Assembly (NCBI GenBank): GCA_045837725.1
Contig: JBEWZL010000157.1
Span: 1-64,000, forward strand
Direction: 5' to 3'
From: Vermamoeba vermiformis
Taxonomy: Eukaryota
Length of the DNA stretch: 64,000 nucleotides
Part shown: positions 29,955 to 38,800 of the stretch, one piece after another
Numbering within the stretch: position 1 is the stretch's first letter
Layout: each line of letters opens with the position of its first letter
Notes under the pieces: model-generated
The model's input: the letters and a program-made list of their open reading frames with translations, nothing else
The model's database searches: none
What the model was told of the DNA's origin: nothing
Translations under genes and position numbers: made by a program

Positions 29955-30456
29955 TAGGGCAAGATGTTGTGCTGATCGGTGCAACTGTCAAAATGCAATT
30001 CGCGACAAATTCCGTTTTTATCTTGCCCTATTTCCTGGAAATAGCTTACCTGAGGGACAGGTTGTGTTCCATTATCCCAATATTGCTGCTCTAGTCTTTT
30101 GAGCGGATTTTTTTATGTAGGAAGTCACCTTGGGCGAAATTGCAGTAGCCGAACCAACAAAACTTCCGACAGCAGAATTAGGCCTCACAAATCATGGAGT
30201 GCACTGACAAGACAAACACCAATCCTATTCATTCACCAGTGTCTCACTTAGCATCGTTGTAATTGCTTGGTTGTCATGATCGTGGCAACTTATTTTATTA
30301 CACGCATTGATTGTTCGTATTACAGAGCAACAAATGACCACCAATAGAATCGTTTGTGACACTCCTTGCCCTTGTGCTATATCGCCTTCTTACTCCACAC
30401 GTTCATCGTGTAACGGATGCTGGATCAGTCAGATTTTCTGTTCTGGAGGTACCTCG

Positions 30457-31655
30457 TCAAGCATTCCGTTGCATTAACTCCACGAATTTGTCGTGTCCAA
30501 TATCGATCATTTTCTCCATAGTCTCCGTAGTGTCATTAATCATCCAAATTTCCTCCGGATCCATCAACAACTCGGTCATGTAGTTCAGTTGCATAATACC
30601 AGTGATGTAGTACAGCGGAACAATTATCTTCCACTCGTCGGCTGTTAACGGAAATCCACGTGTTCGTTGATATTCGTTCATGAACGCGCGTGTCAAATTG
30701 ACGTCAAGTTGCGATCCGACAAAACACCAACAAAATATGGACTGGGCAATGTCAGCGACCAATGGGCCGTAAAATGCATCGTCAAAGTCGAGTACTGCTG
30801 CAACTTGTTCCTTATTAGCGTCAAATAAGACATTTTCGTCGTGCAAATCCGCGTGGATCACGCCTTGAGGTACATTTGCAAGTCTTTGCACGAATTCTTC
30901 GCGCGTGATCGGATCGTCTAGAAATTCGAGTTGTTTGCAGATATTTCCTATTCTGGCAAATATCTCCGCGTGATCTGCCGCCCAATCCAGGTGATCTTCC
31001 AACATGTGATCTTTGATCTCGAGGTAATCTATCGCGCTTCGGGCCTCGTTCTTCCATTCTAAGCTGTTGTAGGTCAATTTATGCTGATTGCCTAAATATT
31101 CTGCTATTTTTAGGGCTTGCCAAGTCTGTCTCGAGGTCGGATGCGCCGGATTTCCATTCACGAATTTGACTCCTTCGACAAATTCAGATAAAACGCCATA
31201 ATAGTCATCTTGCGTGACGTGTATTCCTTTTTTGGAAAGAATCGAATCGGATTCGCTCGCGTTTTTAAATGTGCAAACTTTTGGGACTGGAAGATTATGG
31301 TTTTTCAAATGGCAAAGTAGATCCACCTCGAAAATAAGCGCGTCGGTCGTTCTATTCATATAATCCTTCGTATATACTCGCAAAGCGTATTTCTTGTCGT
31401 CTACAGTCGAGATCTTGAATGTCGAGTTGACCCATCCGCCTGTCAATCGTTCAATTTCTTTTGATTTTGCTAGGCCACAATTTTCTAGAATTTTGTCGAC
31501 ATTTTCATGCGATATCTAACCACGAAATAATTAGTCTACAATAAATAAATAATTTATCTTTAAAAGTTATCTTTATTGGCATAGCTGCAATTTATATACG
31601 AATGTTAACGTTCGATAACAATGTATTAATAACGTATACTTACTGATTGCAACAT
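30457..31655 (-). CDS. APH/choline-kinase-fold phosphotransferase, homoserine kinase type II-like
   Basis: GGWVNSTF, YALRVY, Brenner-type GVIHADLHDENVLF, VLDFDDA; 4-codon first exon MLQS spliced to one long exon. Confidence 0.85.
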
Positions 31656-31897
31656 CTTGTTCTCCTTCTACTGAGAAATTAAATTGAATGAAAAAATCTG
31701 AGCGACACATTTGAACTTTCTTCGGCGGCTTCCGCGAGGTATTACCCATATAAGGAAAAGAAAGAAGCTTCTTCAATATAATTTCTCACTACGTAGTCCA
31801 GTTTAGAATATCCTCCGAGCACATCCGTAAGATTTTTGTGTTTGTAACGGATTAGGCCTAAGTTGCCGCTTTAATTATCCTATCATGATGAAACTAT

Positions 31898-32588
31898 TTA
31901 CATTGCAATGCACTTCTCGTGCTTTTTCTTATTGTTATCGCGGCTATTCCGCTCATTAATATCTTGCACAGCCACATCCATAGCTGACTCGAACAATATT
32001 GCGAGTCCCTCTTGCGTTAACGCCGAGGTCTCGTAATAATTCTTGGCACCTATTTTAGTGGCTAATACTTCGCCCTGTTCGTAGGTCACTGGCACTTGAC
32101 CATTCTGTTCCATTTTGAGGATGTGCTCACCATCTTGACGAAGATCCAGTTTCAGACCCACTAATAAGACTGGGACCTTAGGCCAATACTGAGATATAAT
32201 AGCGGTCCACTTTGATGCTATTTGCTCAAACGAGAGCGGATCTACAACCGAGAAACATAATAAAATGACATTTGGTCGCACTGTCTTGCTTACTTCCACG
32301 TCGCTAACGATAATATGTTAATATAATATATATATTAATTAATACGTACCTATGGCTTCTAATATTTAAGGCAACATTCGTTCTGTCACTCGTGCGAGTG
32401 TTAGCCGCTAAAAAATAATTAAAAATTTAAAAATTTATTGTAAAGTATTATAGGCTAATACGCTTACTATAATTATCATCGTGTCTTTGAAGTGCGTTAG
32501 AATCAGCAAATATATTATTCACGTAACTGAGAACCAAACTTGTTTTGCCAACTTGATCCCCAAGAATCAGACACGATAAGTGCAACAT
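31898..32588 (-). CDS. Atypical Rho-family GTPase (degenerate G1-G3), CAAX-terminated
   Basis: LILGDQVGKTSLVLSY, VILLCFSVVDPLSFEQIASKW, LVGLKLDLR, Rho insert, YYETSALTQEGL, ends KKKHEKCIAM; 3 exons. Confidence 0.85.
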
Positions 32589-32772
32589 TTCCTCGGCAAA
32601 TATCGTGCTAATAGTTCATTTTACATATCTATTTTATAGCATGCCTGGACGACTATCTGGGCATTAAAGATTTTTTGGTTGGTGAACAAATATTCTTTTT
32701 TGTTTTCAATGTAAATACGCGACCATATTTATTGTAGCGAATATCTAGATATTTTATATAAATATAAGACGA

Positions 32773-34987
32773 ATGGAAAGCAAATTTAAGCTTGCTGGGC
32801 TGGTGTTCGTGGAGTGGGATCTGATCCCTGTTATTTACGCTGGTCTCAATATCTTGAGCCGTAAGTACTTTTTAAATATTAACATCATACATATAAAATA
32901 TGCTCGTATTATATCTTAATCAAAGTTAGTCACGCGATGTCACAACAAGAGAGATCTTTTGTTTATTGTGTTCAACAAATTTTAATTAACAAGATAATAC
33001 CAAATTATGCGTACACAATATTAAAAGATGTTATTTGACATTCAATATTAATTTTAAAAATTGATCTAGTCGTTATGGCCTTCACCGCCGGAGAAAAATT
33101 ATTGGGCCGGTATTCAAAATTTGTAACGATGAAAAACGATGACTCAGGTATGTTATTAAACATGATATATATCCAAATTGATCTATTCTAATTGCCTAAT
33201 TTAGAAATGATTGATGGGCGCAAAGGCATGCTTTTGTTTTATAGCCCTGCATTTATATCACACGTCGCTCTATACTTCTTATTTGGCGCGCCTATGTCAC
33301 TGTATCATATATTAATATTTCTTGGTATTACTATTCATTTTGCTAAGCGACTCTTGGAGGTAAGTTTACTACATCCGCTTTCTACCAAAAGTTTAGTCTT
33401 AAATGCTTTACAATTATTATATACTAAACGCTATCATAACATGTAGGTGCTTTATGTACATATATACACCAATCAAGTTGAATTACAATCGACTTTAGCC
33501 GGATCTATTTTTTATGCAGCAAGCTACGGAGTTGCGTTTGCTTATTATGCCTATTACTTGATCGATCCATCATGTAAGTCTAACCTATATTATTATGCTC
33601 ATTATTGTTATTATTGTTTTGTTGAATTACTACTGGACGAAATTGAACGTTTGGGATCGGATGTCGTTCTTTCTTTGGGCCACCAAGAATGAAATTTTTA
33701 GCGCGTTTCATCGGCTTGAGTGATTTCATGCCACATTCAGTACATTCTAAGCACAAGACTATTTTTTTGGTGGTCTTAGCCTTTAATAGAATTTCGTTAG
33801 TTTGAAATTCGATCCAAGTCTTTATTTTACCTTCTTATGAAATATTGGCATAGCCTGAGGATTTATTCTAGGTGCTATAATTTGATGACGTCTTTTGCCT
33901 ATTGAATTGAATTTTAGCCAATGAAATCAGATTTTTCTCGTATGCTCGATCCAAATTTACCTTGCGTGTAAGGTCTTGATCGACCAGTTTTATATTGAGC
34001 GACTTTATGATTAGTATGTTTTCTGCATTGTCTAGATTTGCAAAAGGTTTTGCGATGTTTGGGGACGTTGACCTTAATTATAAAATAATCAGATCCGGCA
34101 ATCCAAAAATTAGTTAGTTGTTTACGTACCATAAAATAAAAAAGGACTAAGGAACTACTAATTGAATCGGGCGCGTGATTTTTTATTGCTCGCCTTAAAA
34201 ATTTGCCTGTCAAAAATTGGAAATTTGACACTCAAATTCAATTTCGTTTCGCTGCCTTCGCATGTTTTTCGCACCTTTTTTTAACTGAATCAATGGTGAA
34301 AAATCCAACCGCCATAATCATAATCAAATTGACATTTTGCAAAATTGCGGTTCGCGATGGATCGAGATACTTGGTTTATCGAGTCATGAATTCCTAACCC
34401 ATTGTATTAATTATAGTCCCTGTTATACTCAATTTCGAGAAGTATTGGCTCATTGGCGCAGTTTTATACGTCATTGGCATCGCTTCAAATGGTTATCATC
34501 ACTGGCTGCTACGCGAAGTTCGATTGAACAAAAAGAGCCAGCTTCAACGCCAAATACTCAAAATAATAATAAGGTGGTTAATAAGGCTAATACTCCTGGC
34601 AAGAACCAAGCGGCTGCTTCGCCTTCAGTCGAGATCAAATCCGGATCGGTCAAAGTCCGAGTCGATGTCTCGAAGACAAATAACAATAATACTAATATTA
34701 ATAATAATCCTCAACCTAATACTACTGCGAAGAAGGAGACTAGCGATAATCAATATGAAATACCTCGCGGAGGATTATTTGAGTACGTAGTTTGTCCGCA
34801 CTATTTCAGTGAATTGATTGAGCTGATTGGCCTCGCAATCATATTCAAGCATTTAGTAGGCTACTTAATCGTCTTATTCTCGATTATTAGTCTCGCGCAT
34901 CGAGCGGACACTACGCTCAAATGGTACGCCAAAAACAAACCTAATTTTCCAAAGGACAAATTGCGGTTAATTCCGTTTGTTTGGTAA
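32773..34987 (+). CDS. Steroid 5-alpha-reductase / enoyl-reductase family membrane protein (apparent missing A at 34530-34534)
   Basis: [67 protein letters not shown]; 843-nt intron at 33574-34416. Confidence 0.88.
33580..34132 (-). CDS. RPL36A: Divergent 60S ribosomal protein eL42 (L36a/L44) paralog, nested antisense in an intron
   Basis: Exons 34132-34130, 34072-33961, 33898-33831, 33780-33580 give 127 aa: [63 protein letters not shown]. Confidence 0.92.
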
Positions 34988-35055
34988 TGAACATAAAGCT
35001 CATTTTGTATTGAAATGAATATTTATTTAAGTCCATGAATTACTAACGGAAAGGC

Positions 35056-35697
35056 TTACATTTTTAAGTTAGCAAGTGCATCTTCGATGTTGACTTCTTC
35101 GCCTCCGTTCTTCATCTTCTTGCCCTCGGTTAAGACTCTTATTTTAGTACATACTCACCAGTTATTTTTCAGATAGGCACGAAATTTTTCTTTTTTAATG
35201 GTTGACGGAGAAGACGTTTGATCGTACACCCCTCGCAGAGCACGCCGTAGAGTTCGCCTCTTCAGTTCCCACTGGATACGCGCCGCACTCTCAGTCTCCG
35301 TCTCTACTACTCCGCAGGGCGAGAGTTGGTAGCCAAAAATTTATCCACAAAGACCCCGGACTCGCAGCGAGCCCCAAGAGAGCGTTGATCGAAAGGGGCC
35401 CCCAACGCGAGACGTTCTCGGGACCAATTGCAGCTTTTCGCTCTTGTTTAGAGCGTTGCAAACCCTCCTCCGAAGTTAAATTTTTATTTTTGCTCCGCGA
35501 GAAACCGATGTTTTCCCTTTGTCTTCAAAAATTGTAAAAGATGACCACATAGGACGACCATTTTGGTCTAGACTACTCGAGTAATGATAGAGATTATCAT
35601 CATCCAGGATTTGATATTGCGGAGGTTGAGCAAGCTGCGGTTGTCCTTGAAACTGGATATGCTCGTTGATTTGATGCTGAGCTTGTGGTTGGGCCAT
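35056..35697 (-). pseudogene. Possible disrupted Gln-rich gene
   Basis: Protein-like frames (MAQPQAQHQ..., GYQLSPCGVVETETESAARIQWELKRRTLRR...) separated by stops or frame changes; GTGAGT donor near 35158. Confidence 0.25.
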
Positions 35698-35808
35698 CGT
35701 TGTTGATTACTGTGGTTGTGAGATAGAAAAGAAGGCAAGACATCGCTTTCTCAATTAACTCACTATAAACGGTGGGACAATTATTTGTTCCGCTCTAATT
35801 AAATTTTA

Positions 35809-38800
35809 TCAACCGTCAAAATTGTTCAAGTACTCTTCTTCTTGCAACATCCGCGCCATTTCTTCGTCGGTCATAAATTCCATGTTATTAACCGGATTAG
35901 CTCCTGGCGTGGGAACAAAATTATTTGGTTGTTGAGGTTGTAGGTGACCAGGCAGGAAATTATTATTATCGTGTAAAGGTACGTTTCGCCATATTGTTCT
36001 CGCTTGATCCGCAATTCTTTTTTGTTCCGCTTCATTTTTTCTTTTCGCCTCCTCGCGCCTTCGCATCTCTTGTTCTTCTTGTAGTTTTTGTTCGTTGCGC
36101 TGCTTTTGTGCGTGGTACTCCATTGACTTGCGCATTGCTTCAGCGTTCATTTGATCTAGAAGGTATTTGTTCTCGCCTGTAATCTCCACTTTATTTTCGA
36201 CTTTTTCCGGCGCGTAGAACATCTGCGCAGAAAAAAAAATCAGAAAATAATATTTCCAAATATGGTAATAATGACTTACATCGAGATCATCGTCATCGTC
36301 GCTAATTTGCATGCTATCACTTTCATCTTCATCTTCGCTGATCTGATCTTGATCTTCATTCTCTGCCTCGCTGTCGTAGGATTCTTCGCTCTCGTCCGAA
36401 CCATAATTATCGTCGTTGCGAGAGGTCATATTGTTGTTACTATTTGTGGTATGATAGTTCGATTTCTTGATCGACTGGTCTTGCGAGTTACTTAGGCCGG
36501 CATCCTTGTTCTTGCCAAAGTTGATTAAAGCCGAATGGAACAAACCAAAGCTGCGTAGTTCGTTCTCAACAGGTGTTGCCTCGCGCAATTTTTGAATCAA
36601 AGTCGTGTTGGTCAAACGAAGTTCTTGCACTGTCTTGTCATAGGTGCTCAGATCGAGAATCGTCTTCGGCGGCACTACCAAGTCAAAGGCCTTGTCGCCA
36701 AGTTTGACGGCACTGTATTACCAAATTAGGAAATGTCGGTCAAAACCAGCGGTTGAAACTTACTGTCTTGCGTAGGCATAAAGATCTATCACGCGATGCG
36801 TAGGATTGCAATTGATATTCATCACGGCACCAGATGTCAATCTGTTCATGAATTAGCATAATCTGCTGTTTGACACGTGTCATCTTTGACATACCTAATC
36901 TTGACACGTACGACCGGTTGATCAGAACGAAGACTAATTTCTTGCTTCGAATACATTTCGGCAATCCTATGAAGGCATTAGTATCGTTATAAATGGTAAA
37001 TGAATGACCTACAATTGCACGTCCTTCATCGACAAGTTGGATCCGCTCGACTTCAACAACGCGGGCAATTTTTCCATTGGCGACATCTCTTTTCTAATGC
37101 CCGAGAATGCGCTGAGTAAATTCGTCTTTGTCAGTTCTGATCGTCGTGGCAGCAGATATTTTAAGCTCCACTTGTGTTGCGACCCGTAGATCATTTGAAT
37201 TTCTGCGATAAAATGTCAAAAACTCCGCTCAAAGCCAAAATAGTATGAATTATATACGTACGATCGCCAAATAATTGTTCCGCTCGCTCCTGTAAATGTC
37301 CCATAAACTGCACGGACCTCAAATGCTTCATGTTGTGCATGGCGGCAAGAATTTCACTGAACATCATGTTGGACTTCCATTGCAGATGATACAACGTGAG
37401 AGGTATATTAAATGACTCCTTATAAAGGCCATGAATGTCTTCGACTTCCAACACTCTCAATCGAGTCGGTAGTTTGACATCCACGCCTAAATAAACTTCT
37501 TGTAATTTCAAGGCCTGTAGATTTTTGTACCGGCCCAAATCGATTCTCCGCAGTGTAAGGTTATTTGGGAGAGCATTTACGATTACGACTGGCCGACGAA
37601 TGAACGAGAGCTTTCTCACTGGATGATCGGAAAAGTTGGCGTTGGATCCGAGATCCGAGGCGTCTTCGTTTTGATTGGTGATAGTGGTTGAATTTGCAAG
37701 GCCTTCTATTATTAGATCTTCCGCAAATGGAAATTTTTCGAGTAATTTCTCAAAGTGTAGCGTTTCAAGTTTGAATTCGGGAATTCTGTTGATTTCTAAC
37801 GAGACATTTTTGAGCGACTTTGATCGCGTGAGTAGGTCGATTGCACCAACTGGCATTTGCATAGGAACTAGTTTCAAGCTCTTCAAATGATATCCTAATA
37901 TCTGAGTGTCGTCCTGTTGCTTTTTGTCCATTTTTAGAGTTGCTCCTGATAAATCTAAGTGTTCCAAATTAGGAAAAAGTTGCAACAATTCAACGACATC
38001 CACCGTTCCACTTTGCAAAATTAATGTGCGTAGGGTCAGGCACGGATCGATCGGCAAAGTATAAACTGCCAGCGTTGGTGCGTAAAACGAAGTCGGTCCT
38101 TCTTTCCAAGCACCATCGCCCGAAGTTATTTCCGTGAAATCGTAATTCAACTTTTTGTTCGTGAAAATGAAGTGAATTTTTGCTATTGCGCCTGCAGCAA
38201 GTGATCTTTCGCCTATTAATTCAGACTTATCATCTTCTATTATTCGTGACAGGCCCGACACTTCTTCTAACTTTTGACACGTGTCATTGATTGCGTCCAA
38301 GACAAACTTTGACACTTTGACTGACATATCTGTTCGTAATACTCTCAAATTCTTTGCACTACATAAATATCATTAGTATTATATTAATTATATCCCTACT
38401 ATGCCTTTCTTACGCAATAGGGCCAATTTCTTGAACAGTGTGCTCGCGGTGGCGATATTTACAAATGAATTCTTGCAAGTTTGGCGCGTGCATCAAAAAA
38501 AACTCGAATAATTTGACGTGTTCTGCGGTGAGAATTTGATTCTTCGCCGTTGAAATATTCACGCTGGCCAGATTCGGAGGCAATTTGAACGGAACCGACT
38601 GGATCTTCGGAAGTGCAACGTTTCTTAGTTTGAGCGCTCTAAAAAATAGTTAGAATATTATATAATAATTAGAATATTGTTGATATTAAAATTATTATTA
38701 TTTGCTGCTACGTACATTAGATCAGGAAAATAGCGCAATTGTTCCAACCACATTTCGTCCATTGACGCGGAGTTAATTTCAAGGTGAACTAATTTAATAG

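Follow-up and report, generated by a model that had tools for sequence, protein, structure and literature searches.

Introduction

The ribosomal protein eL42 (RPL36A, Rpl42 or L44e) carries a loop that meets the 3' end of deacylated P/E-state tRNA, and in yeast replacement of its Lys55 or of the loop Gln is lethal or lowers activity, according to excerpts of PMC10380927 and PMC5418926. Lys55 is monomethylated by Set13/Rkm4 and Lys40 by Rkm3 (excerpts of PMC4023394), and the protein contributes as well to holding the eIF5A N-terminal extension (excerpts of PMC4770232). Here we describe an eL42-type gene on the minus strand of a 64,000-nucleotide stretch of Vermamoeba vermiformis DNA (assembly GCA_045837725.1, contig JBEWZL010000157.1, positions 1 to 64,000), referred to below as the window, in which most of this loop is replaced.

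Changes in the same E-site loop, natural or engineered, are found in the Q-type eL42 (L41) of Kluyveromyces lactis and Candida maltosa and in the C. elegans RPL-36A P55Q protein. In these cases a single Pro56-to-Gln substitution in an otherwise canonical, functional protein alters inhibitor binding and confers cycloheximide resistance, as described in excerpts of PMC12132315, whereas the variant from the window keeps Pro56. Tissue- or condition-specific paralogs, for example of S. pombe rpl42 (excerpts of PMC9367792), are like the variant in being second genes with an expression level of their own. Known ribosomal protein paralogs are, however, nearly identical in their functional sites, and in the variant it is the functional loop that has been replaced.

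With canonical eL42 the variant has in common the zinc-binding Cys residues, the basic N-terminal arm, QGKRR, P56 and F58. It is unlike canonical eL42 in residues 43-52, in the K55M exchange, in a 19-residue Asn-rich tail and, as far as reads of a diverged copy tell, in a read depth like that of an ordinary gene. The analysis reported here indicates that it is very probably a real, expressed and conserved divergent copy of eL42.

Results

The loop is replaced within a conserved core

In the numbering of the 106-aa form, the loop of the variant reads H43 Q44 I45 I46 A47 P48 R49 I50 N51 P52 Q53 A54 M55, followed by P56 I57 F58, and its residues 43-55 differ from the canonical YDRKQSGYGGQTK. A MAFFT alignment with 28 canonical rows was gapless here, as was the alignment with the canonical gene L001 and the canonical protein P0123, i.e., the loop has the canonical length. 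Residues 43-52 are replaced and K55 has become Met; in all, 12 of the 13 residues preceding P56 are altered. Only Q53, the Gln of the GGQ motif, is kept within the loop, and Lys40, P56 and F58 are retained around it. The canonical pattern Y-D-x-K-Q-x-G-x-G-G-Q-x-K is absent.

The contrast between the loop and the rest of the protein is strong. When a conserved column was defined as one that is at least 90% conserved across the 28 canonical rows, the variant kept 40 of 41 such columns in the rest of the protein but, within the loop, only 1 of 9, namely Q53 (Fisher p 1.5e-7). The exchange removes three positive charges (R45, K46 and K55) and flexible Gly residues, and introduces Ile and Pro. The change of AAG to ATG that gives K55M requires one base. 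Codon 56 is CCA (Pro), and the Gln of the cycloheximide-resistant Q-type eL42 is absent. Comparing the DNA with L001 by hand, we found that similarity to the canonical exon returns at the Gln codon.

Outside the loop, the four zinc ligands (C12, C17, C74 and C77), QGKRR and the AKTTKK region are intact, and the 19-residue Asn-rich tail comes after a retained QF (residues 107-108). A sequence-only reading of this DNA had described a same-length replacement, intact zinc-knuckle Cys pairs and QGKRR, an added Asn-rich tail and a Pro retained at the cycloheximide-resistance position, all of which the alignment and the translated gene model bear out. Its description of the GGQ/E-site loop as rewritten holds for 8 of the 9 conserved columns but needs amending in one respect, since the Q of GGQ is still present.

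The gene consists of four exons at 34132..33580, separated by introns of 57, 62 and 50 nt that all have GT..AG borders. Its reading frame of 384 nt comprises 127 codons and a stop, giving a product of 127 aa. The segment that had drawn attention in the sequence-only reading is exactly exon 3, whose translation includes the last base of exon 2. Pfam PF00935 (Ribosomal_L44) matched exon 4 with an E value of 3.4e-9 and 37.4 bits (cut-off 25) over profile positions 44-75, and exon 2 with an E value of 0.0026 and 18.5 bits over positions 1-20, leaving positions 21-43 to exon 3. All 45 sequence matches of exon 4 in the PDB were ribosome chains, nearly all of them named eL42, L36a, L42 or L44.

The gene is transcribed and spliced

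Reads of four runs were placed on positions 30000-38500 at 85% likeness. An X5 contig of 262 nt covers 33703-33779, 33830-33897 and 33960-34073 with 2, 3 and 2 other letters, respectively (7 of 259). Two joints, present in both X5 and X7, confirm introns 3 and 2 to the base: 33779>33830 (cut +1, 50 nt skipped) and 33897>33960 (cut +1, 62 nt skipped), each reading CT..AC on the plus strand. An unspliced piece of the gene is present in X7 as well. That X5 and X7 represent RNA is an automated guess, and the spliced form itself argues for it.

X22 is a raw transcriptomic run, of which about 13.0 million records, or some 46%, were read. Likeness of its 613 placed reads was at least 99% for 5, 95-99% for 45, 90-95% for 212 and below 90% for 351. 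Every listed difference was present in all X22 reads, so these derive from a diverged lineage or copy. X22 shares the species label of the likely source run, yet it is only 85-95% alike over all genes of 30000-38500; it seems that the label spans diverged lineages, or that only diverged copies are expressed.

On the variant, X22 depth was 58-66 reads at exon 2 sites and 29-40 at exon 4 sites, as compared to 83 reads (at 35836) and 126 reads (at 36577) for neighboring genes; these counts refer to reads of the 85-95%-alike copy, with neighboring genes rather than a ribosomal protein gene as comparator. Passage from exon 2 into exon 3 of a copy about 90% alike was seen in 36 reads (30 loose letters). 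In the first 12 exon-3 codons of this copy, compared by hand, there were five synonymous changes (CGT>CGC, ATA>ATT, GCA>GCG, CCT>CCA and ATA>ATT) and no replacement. Two further X22 reads suggest that the next residues are N-A-Q-M-M-P, where the window protein has N-P-Q-A-M-P.

X3 holds two exon 4 pieces within 33652-33795, one identical to the window (0 of 81 positions differ) and one 85% alike (21 of 144 differ). They represent either two diverged copies in one genome or a mixed sample.

Substitutions indicate selection on the coding sequence

In exons 2 and 4, the listed X22 differences affect 17 codons, of which 7 are synonymous and 10 are replacement changes; adding the five synonymous changes of exon 3 gives totals of 12 synonymous and 10 replacement codons. 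Given 77.7 synonymous and 303.3 replacement sites in the variant gene, the crude ratio of replacement to synonymous change (dN/dS, omega) is about 0.2 for all exons (binomial p 4e-4 against neutrality) and 0.37 for exons 2 and 4 only (p 0.04), on the best-supported differences. An open frame, GT..AG introns and a non-neutral omega set the gene apart from a pseudogene, with the reservation of a lost stop in P0001 and of a 5-nt shortfall in two X22 reads (see Discussion). The check on dN/dS that had been proposed, with neutral evolution as the outcome that would speak against a functional variant, gave a crude omega of 0.2-0.4 that argues against neutrality, in a gene that is transcribed.

Outside the loop, the variant has nevertheless diverged faster than canonical eL42. 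Mean identity of the variant to the canonical rows was 0.61, against 0.71 among the canonical rows themselves, and the nearest row was L001, with 73% identity over 82 core columns. In the tree, 2 of 25 inner branches were starred, and the points at which the variant and the protein P0007 (see below) attach are not fixed by it.

Related sequences and rarity of the loop

One related sequence, P0001, is a gene call of prokaryote style from a close relative, made on a contig of 1062 nt. It shows 92% identity over 53 residues of exon 4 and largely keeps the C-terminal extension. P0007 is an unnamed 140-aa protein from a single ENA contig of 697 nt, and because of this origin it is probably transcript-derived. 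It reads QGKRK-LWLLGDERKHPIRNGQSMPVF-HKKSKTSKK and GGTSKKER, where the window protein has GGPKKER.

P0007 and the window protein both combine an eL42 core with a non-canonical loop that opens with a hydrophobic stretch. Around the kept Q they have in common the derived residues P, N and M, at positions where canonical eL42 has G/Y, G and K, and a joint motif can be written as P-x-x-N-x-Q-x-M-P-(I/V)-F-H-K-K, plus GG..KKER; the loop of P0007 ends P-I-R-N-G-Q-S-M-P-V-F-H-K-K. On the other hand, the loop of P0007 is five residues longer, starts with a different hydrophobic stretch and is accompanied by a different tail. P0007 keeps 33 of the 41 conserved columns outside the loop and 3 of 9 inside (p 0.009). 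Its highest identity among all rows is with the window protein (60% of 81 columns), although with 51 of 92 core positions identical the two are no closer to each other than either is to canonical eL42. As judged from these alignments, the replaced loop is itself conserved among relatives, and one old duplication or convergence are both possible origins of P0007 and the variant.

Elsewhere the loop is nearly invariant. Among the best 80 of 238 confirmed eL42 stretches on metagenome contigs, 66 show the canonical G-x-G-G-Q-x-K/R-P, the other 14 stop short of the loop exon, and none carries the variant motif. The canonical loop was present in 51 of 124 collected proteins. Most of the remainder are gene calls that are short or that read through the intron preceding AKTTKK, a few lack AKTTKK, and P0007 alone has a truly different loop correctly joined to HKK. 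Two of the collected eL42 forms, P0058 and P0122, are without the loop exon, their N-terminal part being joined straight to AKTTKK, an arrangement that could stem from skipped exons or faulty annotation in other organisms.

A search of 1.84 billion representatives gave 122 matches, with P0001 and P0007 as the only related forms; such 50% representatives may conceal variant proteins within canonical clusters. The exon 4 search against longer proteins gave no match; shorter annotated orthologues may exist among proteins of 36-115 aa in the 90% clusters. P0007 as a query returned itself and two canonical eL42 proteins only. The full-text literature searched, which excluded most subscription journals, yielded no description of such an eL42 form.

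Origin of the variant

The three introns of the variant lie after codon 1, within codon 39 and after codon 61, positions identical to those in the canonical gene L001, in which the acceptor likewise directly precedes codon 2. The breaks at codons 39 and 61 recur in the canonical loci L012 and L032. Because the three intron positions equal those of canonical genes, the variant is, as far as gene structure tells, a DNA-level duplicate of a canonical gene and not a product of retroposition. Searching the window by tblastn with the variant, canonical P0123 and P0007 revealed no second eL42. The term paralog is likely to be correct, with indirect support from the neighbor-like read depth and from the lowest GC content at third codon positions (GC3) of ten open reading frames (ORFs).

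Several routes to the altered loop were considered. For a compensated frameshift, the best alternative-frame candidate in canonical exon 3 DNA was frame +1 of L001, with a score of 24 (95th percentile 19 and maximum 32 for shuffled sequences; 1 of 32 loci), and in the window an alternative frame giving KSSGY, against canonical KQSGY, scored 22 (shuffled 99th percentile 21, maximum 25). This origin was rejected because the offsets would call for three indels. Moreover, in two reads of the X22 copy these 15 bases show 6 differences, and an old relic is hardly expected to last under such change. There is no room for a hidden alternative exon 3 of canonical sequence, the introns being only 50-62 nt long. 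Inversion found no support.

Genomic surroundings

The entire coding sequence of the variant lies antisense within a predicted intron of a gene of the 3-oxo-5-alpha-steroid 4-dehydrogenase family (Steroid_dh; Table 1). PF02544 positions 66-150 were found in 34289-34987 on the plus strand, and joining 33573 to 34417 preserves the frame of this gene. The predicted intron is some 15 times as long as the other introns observed, and its junction was absent from the reads of the four runs placed on this region. X3 and X5 contigs extend from the Steroid_dh exon at 33445 into exon 4 of the variant. Since these contigs join the upstream exon of the host gene to the variant, there is either an overlap between the ends of the two transcripts or occasional retention of the 843-nt intron.

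Table 1. Features of the eL42 variant gene and of the gene that surrounds it.
Feature	Position	Strand	Basis or remark
Exon 1, ATG only	34130..34132	-	ATG followed by GTACGT; predicted
Intron 1, 57 nt, GT..AG	34073..34129	-	predicted from sequence and matching L001 position; no read or contig joint over it
Exon 2, residues 2-39 (first base of codon 39), first zinc knuckle C12/C17	33961..34072	-	
Intron 2, 62 nt, phase 1	33899..33960	-	joints in X5 and X7 contigs
Exon 3, residues 39-61, carries the altered loop	33831..33898	-	sequence; X5 contig covers 33830-33897 with 3 other letters
Altered loop, codons 43-55 (H43..M55)	33849..33887	-	alignment with canonical eL42
Intron 3, 50 nt, phase 0	33781..33830	-	joints in X5 and X7 contigs
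Exon 4, residues 62-127 and stop TAG, second zinc knuckle C74/C77	33580..33780	-	
C-terminal extension, residues 109-127, past the canonical end	33583..33639	-	alignment
Intron of Steroid_dh-family gene, 843 nt, phase 1	33574..34416	+	GTAAGT donor at 33574, TTATAG acceptor ending at 34416; predicted
Exons of Steroid_dh-family (PF02544) gene	~33205-33357, 33445-33573, 34417-34510, 34700-34987	+	

The last large ORF of the Steroid_dh gene contains a long Asn/Thr/Pro-rich insert at 34500-34700 (plus strand), immediately ahead of a conserved block of 11 residues; like the tail of the variant, it is of low complexity. In P0001, the 48 residues that follow the position of the variant's stop are antisense to an exon of this host gene. 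Elsewhere in the window, an ORF at 64-663 on the minus strand, adjoining a P-type ATPase gene, contains a Phage Tail Collar domain (PF07484, E 1.2e-14). Given the eukaryotic, intron-containing surroundings, it is a candidate case of horizontal gene transfer. Proteins with Slo-type RCK and SIK3-type UBA domains are encoded as well; together with the phage-collar ORF, the 50-62-nt introns and best PDB matches that are probably animal ribosome chains, they would, as no more than a guess, suit a bdelloid-rotifer-like animal.

Discussion

The retained core comprises the basic N-terminal arm, K40, KKAKTTKK, P56, F58 and the four zinc ligands. Because this rRNA- and zinc-binding core is untouched, docking at the eL42 site is the most likely fate of the protein. 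In the 60S subunit it would compete for the eL42 pocket with a canonical eL42 from another place in the genome, and a small fraction of ribosomes would thereby acquire a changed E site. In these ribosomes the usual grip on the CCA end of the deacylated tRNA would be missing, because R45, K46, K55 and the flexible Gly residues are lost and Ile and Pro are gained, and one wall of the pocket beside the cycloheximide site would be altered. Judged from the residues kept and lost, we tentatively favor such a ribosome-bound variant, which may provide an altered E site in a minority of ribosomes.

Several observations weigh against a functional subunit of this kind. Going by the yeast mutants (excerpts of PMC10380927), poor translation would be expected of a ribosome that carries such a loop. 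The end branch of the variant measures 0.81, about nine times the median of 0.087, and together with an omega of 0.2-0.4 this shows that constraint on the variant is much weaker than on canonical eL42. The omega itself rests on the best-supported 40 of 161 differences, the selection of which was blind to coding effect. Depth in X22, at about 30-66 reads per site in 13 million, is similar to that of neighboring genes, and the GC3 of 0.31 falls below the 0.42-0.63 of the other window ORFs in a comparison of ten. The TAG stop of the variant is replaced in P0001, where the frame runs on for 48 residues. Finally, in the two X22 reads that gave the residues downstream in the loop, exon 3 is 5 nt shorter than in the majority, a shortfall that would break the frame and that may be an error or stem from a broken minor copy.

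A more specific possibility, which we consider doubtful, is that the variant acts as a conditional alternative subunit, producing ribosomes with an E site that does not hold the CCA end of the leaving tRNA (K55M, GG to NP). If true, such ribosomes could be insensitive to glutarimide-type E-site inhibitors of soil and fresh water, or alternatively they could be parked, protected and non-translating during stress. The variant would then represent a natural ribosomal protein paralog with a re-engineered functional site.

The protein could also function away from the mature ribosome. Rlp24 and Mrt4 are ribosomal-like proteins that serve as a model for an off-ribosome or pre-ribosome role, and the known ribosomal-like assembly placeholders are universal in eukaryotes, where they exist beside the canonical protein. 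The variant would in that case be an assembly placeholder or a free RNA-binding factor, with a zinc-ribbon core that binds rRNA or another RNA and with the loop and tail as protein-binding surfaces. The preserved core, combined with a different functional loop and an extended C terminus, fits this role, as do the ordinary-gene expression level and a hydrophobic, Pro-rich loop that suits protein contacts better than RNA contacts. The impaired translation caused by loop changes in yeast (excerpts of PMC10380927) points in the same direction. Unlike universal placeholders, however, the variant is rare, with 0 of 80 metagenome loci and only P0001 and P0007 among the 122 matches. Moreover, the tail is not firmly conserved, given the stop lost in P0001, and the E-site pocket residues P56 and F58 are retained. 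We regard this role as possible but rather unlikely.

It is improbable that the gene is a duplicate on its way out, i.e., a redundant copy with residual transcription in which the loop happened to drift first. The long end branch, an omega far above what is expected for a ribosomal protein and the low GC3 would suit such a copy, as would the non-conserved stop in P0001 and the frame-breaking shortfall in two X22 reads. Decay would not, however, leave 40 of 41 conserved core columns intact and yet alter 8 of 9 in the loop (p 1.5e-7). Frame and splice sites are intact both here and in the diverged copy, the first 12 exon-3 codons show five synonymous changes and no replacement, the substitutions overall argue against neutrality (p 4e-4), and the derived loop motif recurs in the distant P0007. 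The earlier proposal that so localised a change looks more like selection than decay is therefore sustained by the core columns, by splicing and transcription, by the omega and by the motif common to P0007.

That the variant is the organism's only eL42, with a loop typical of its lineage, is very improbable. The absence of a canonical copy from the 64-kb window agrees with such a reading. A sole eL42 of the variant kind is unlikely because loop changes at K55 or the Gln are lethal or crippling in yeast (excerpts of PMC10380927 and PMC5418926). The loop is canonical in all 66 loci that show it and in 51 collected proteins, and the gene has the lowest GC3 and a read depth of the same order as neighboring genes. 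Genes that alone encode a ribosomal protein rank with the most strongly expressed ones, and a read depth one to two orders of magnitude above the present one would be expected.

Histones with a Lys-to-Met change act as inhibitors of SET enzymes, and by analogy Met at the position of Lys55 might turn the variant into a pseudo-substrate decoy that traps the SET-domain methyltransferase Set13/Rkm4. Although this enzyme monomethylates K55 (excerpts of PMC4023394) and Met occurs here in the window protein, in P0007 and in two reads of the X22 copy, through a single AAG-to-ATG change, the idea is pure analogy, the residues preceding Met that the enzyme would recognize are changed too, and we give it hardly any credence.

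Few parts of the eukaryotic ribosome vary as little as the eL42 loop, which contacts the leaving tRNA and borders the cycloheximide pocket, and which is canonical in every locus and collected protein in which it could be seen apart from the forms described here. A natural, selectively kept copy in which just that loop is altered, and not the core, provides a ready-made probe of loop function. It is also a candidate source of heterogeneity among ribosomes at a functional site, or of natural tolerance to inhibitors.

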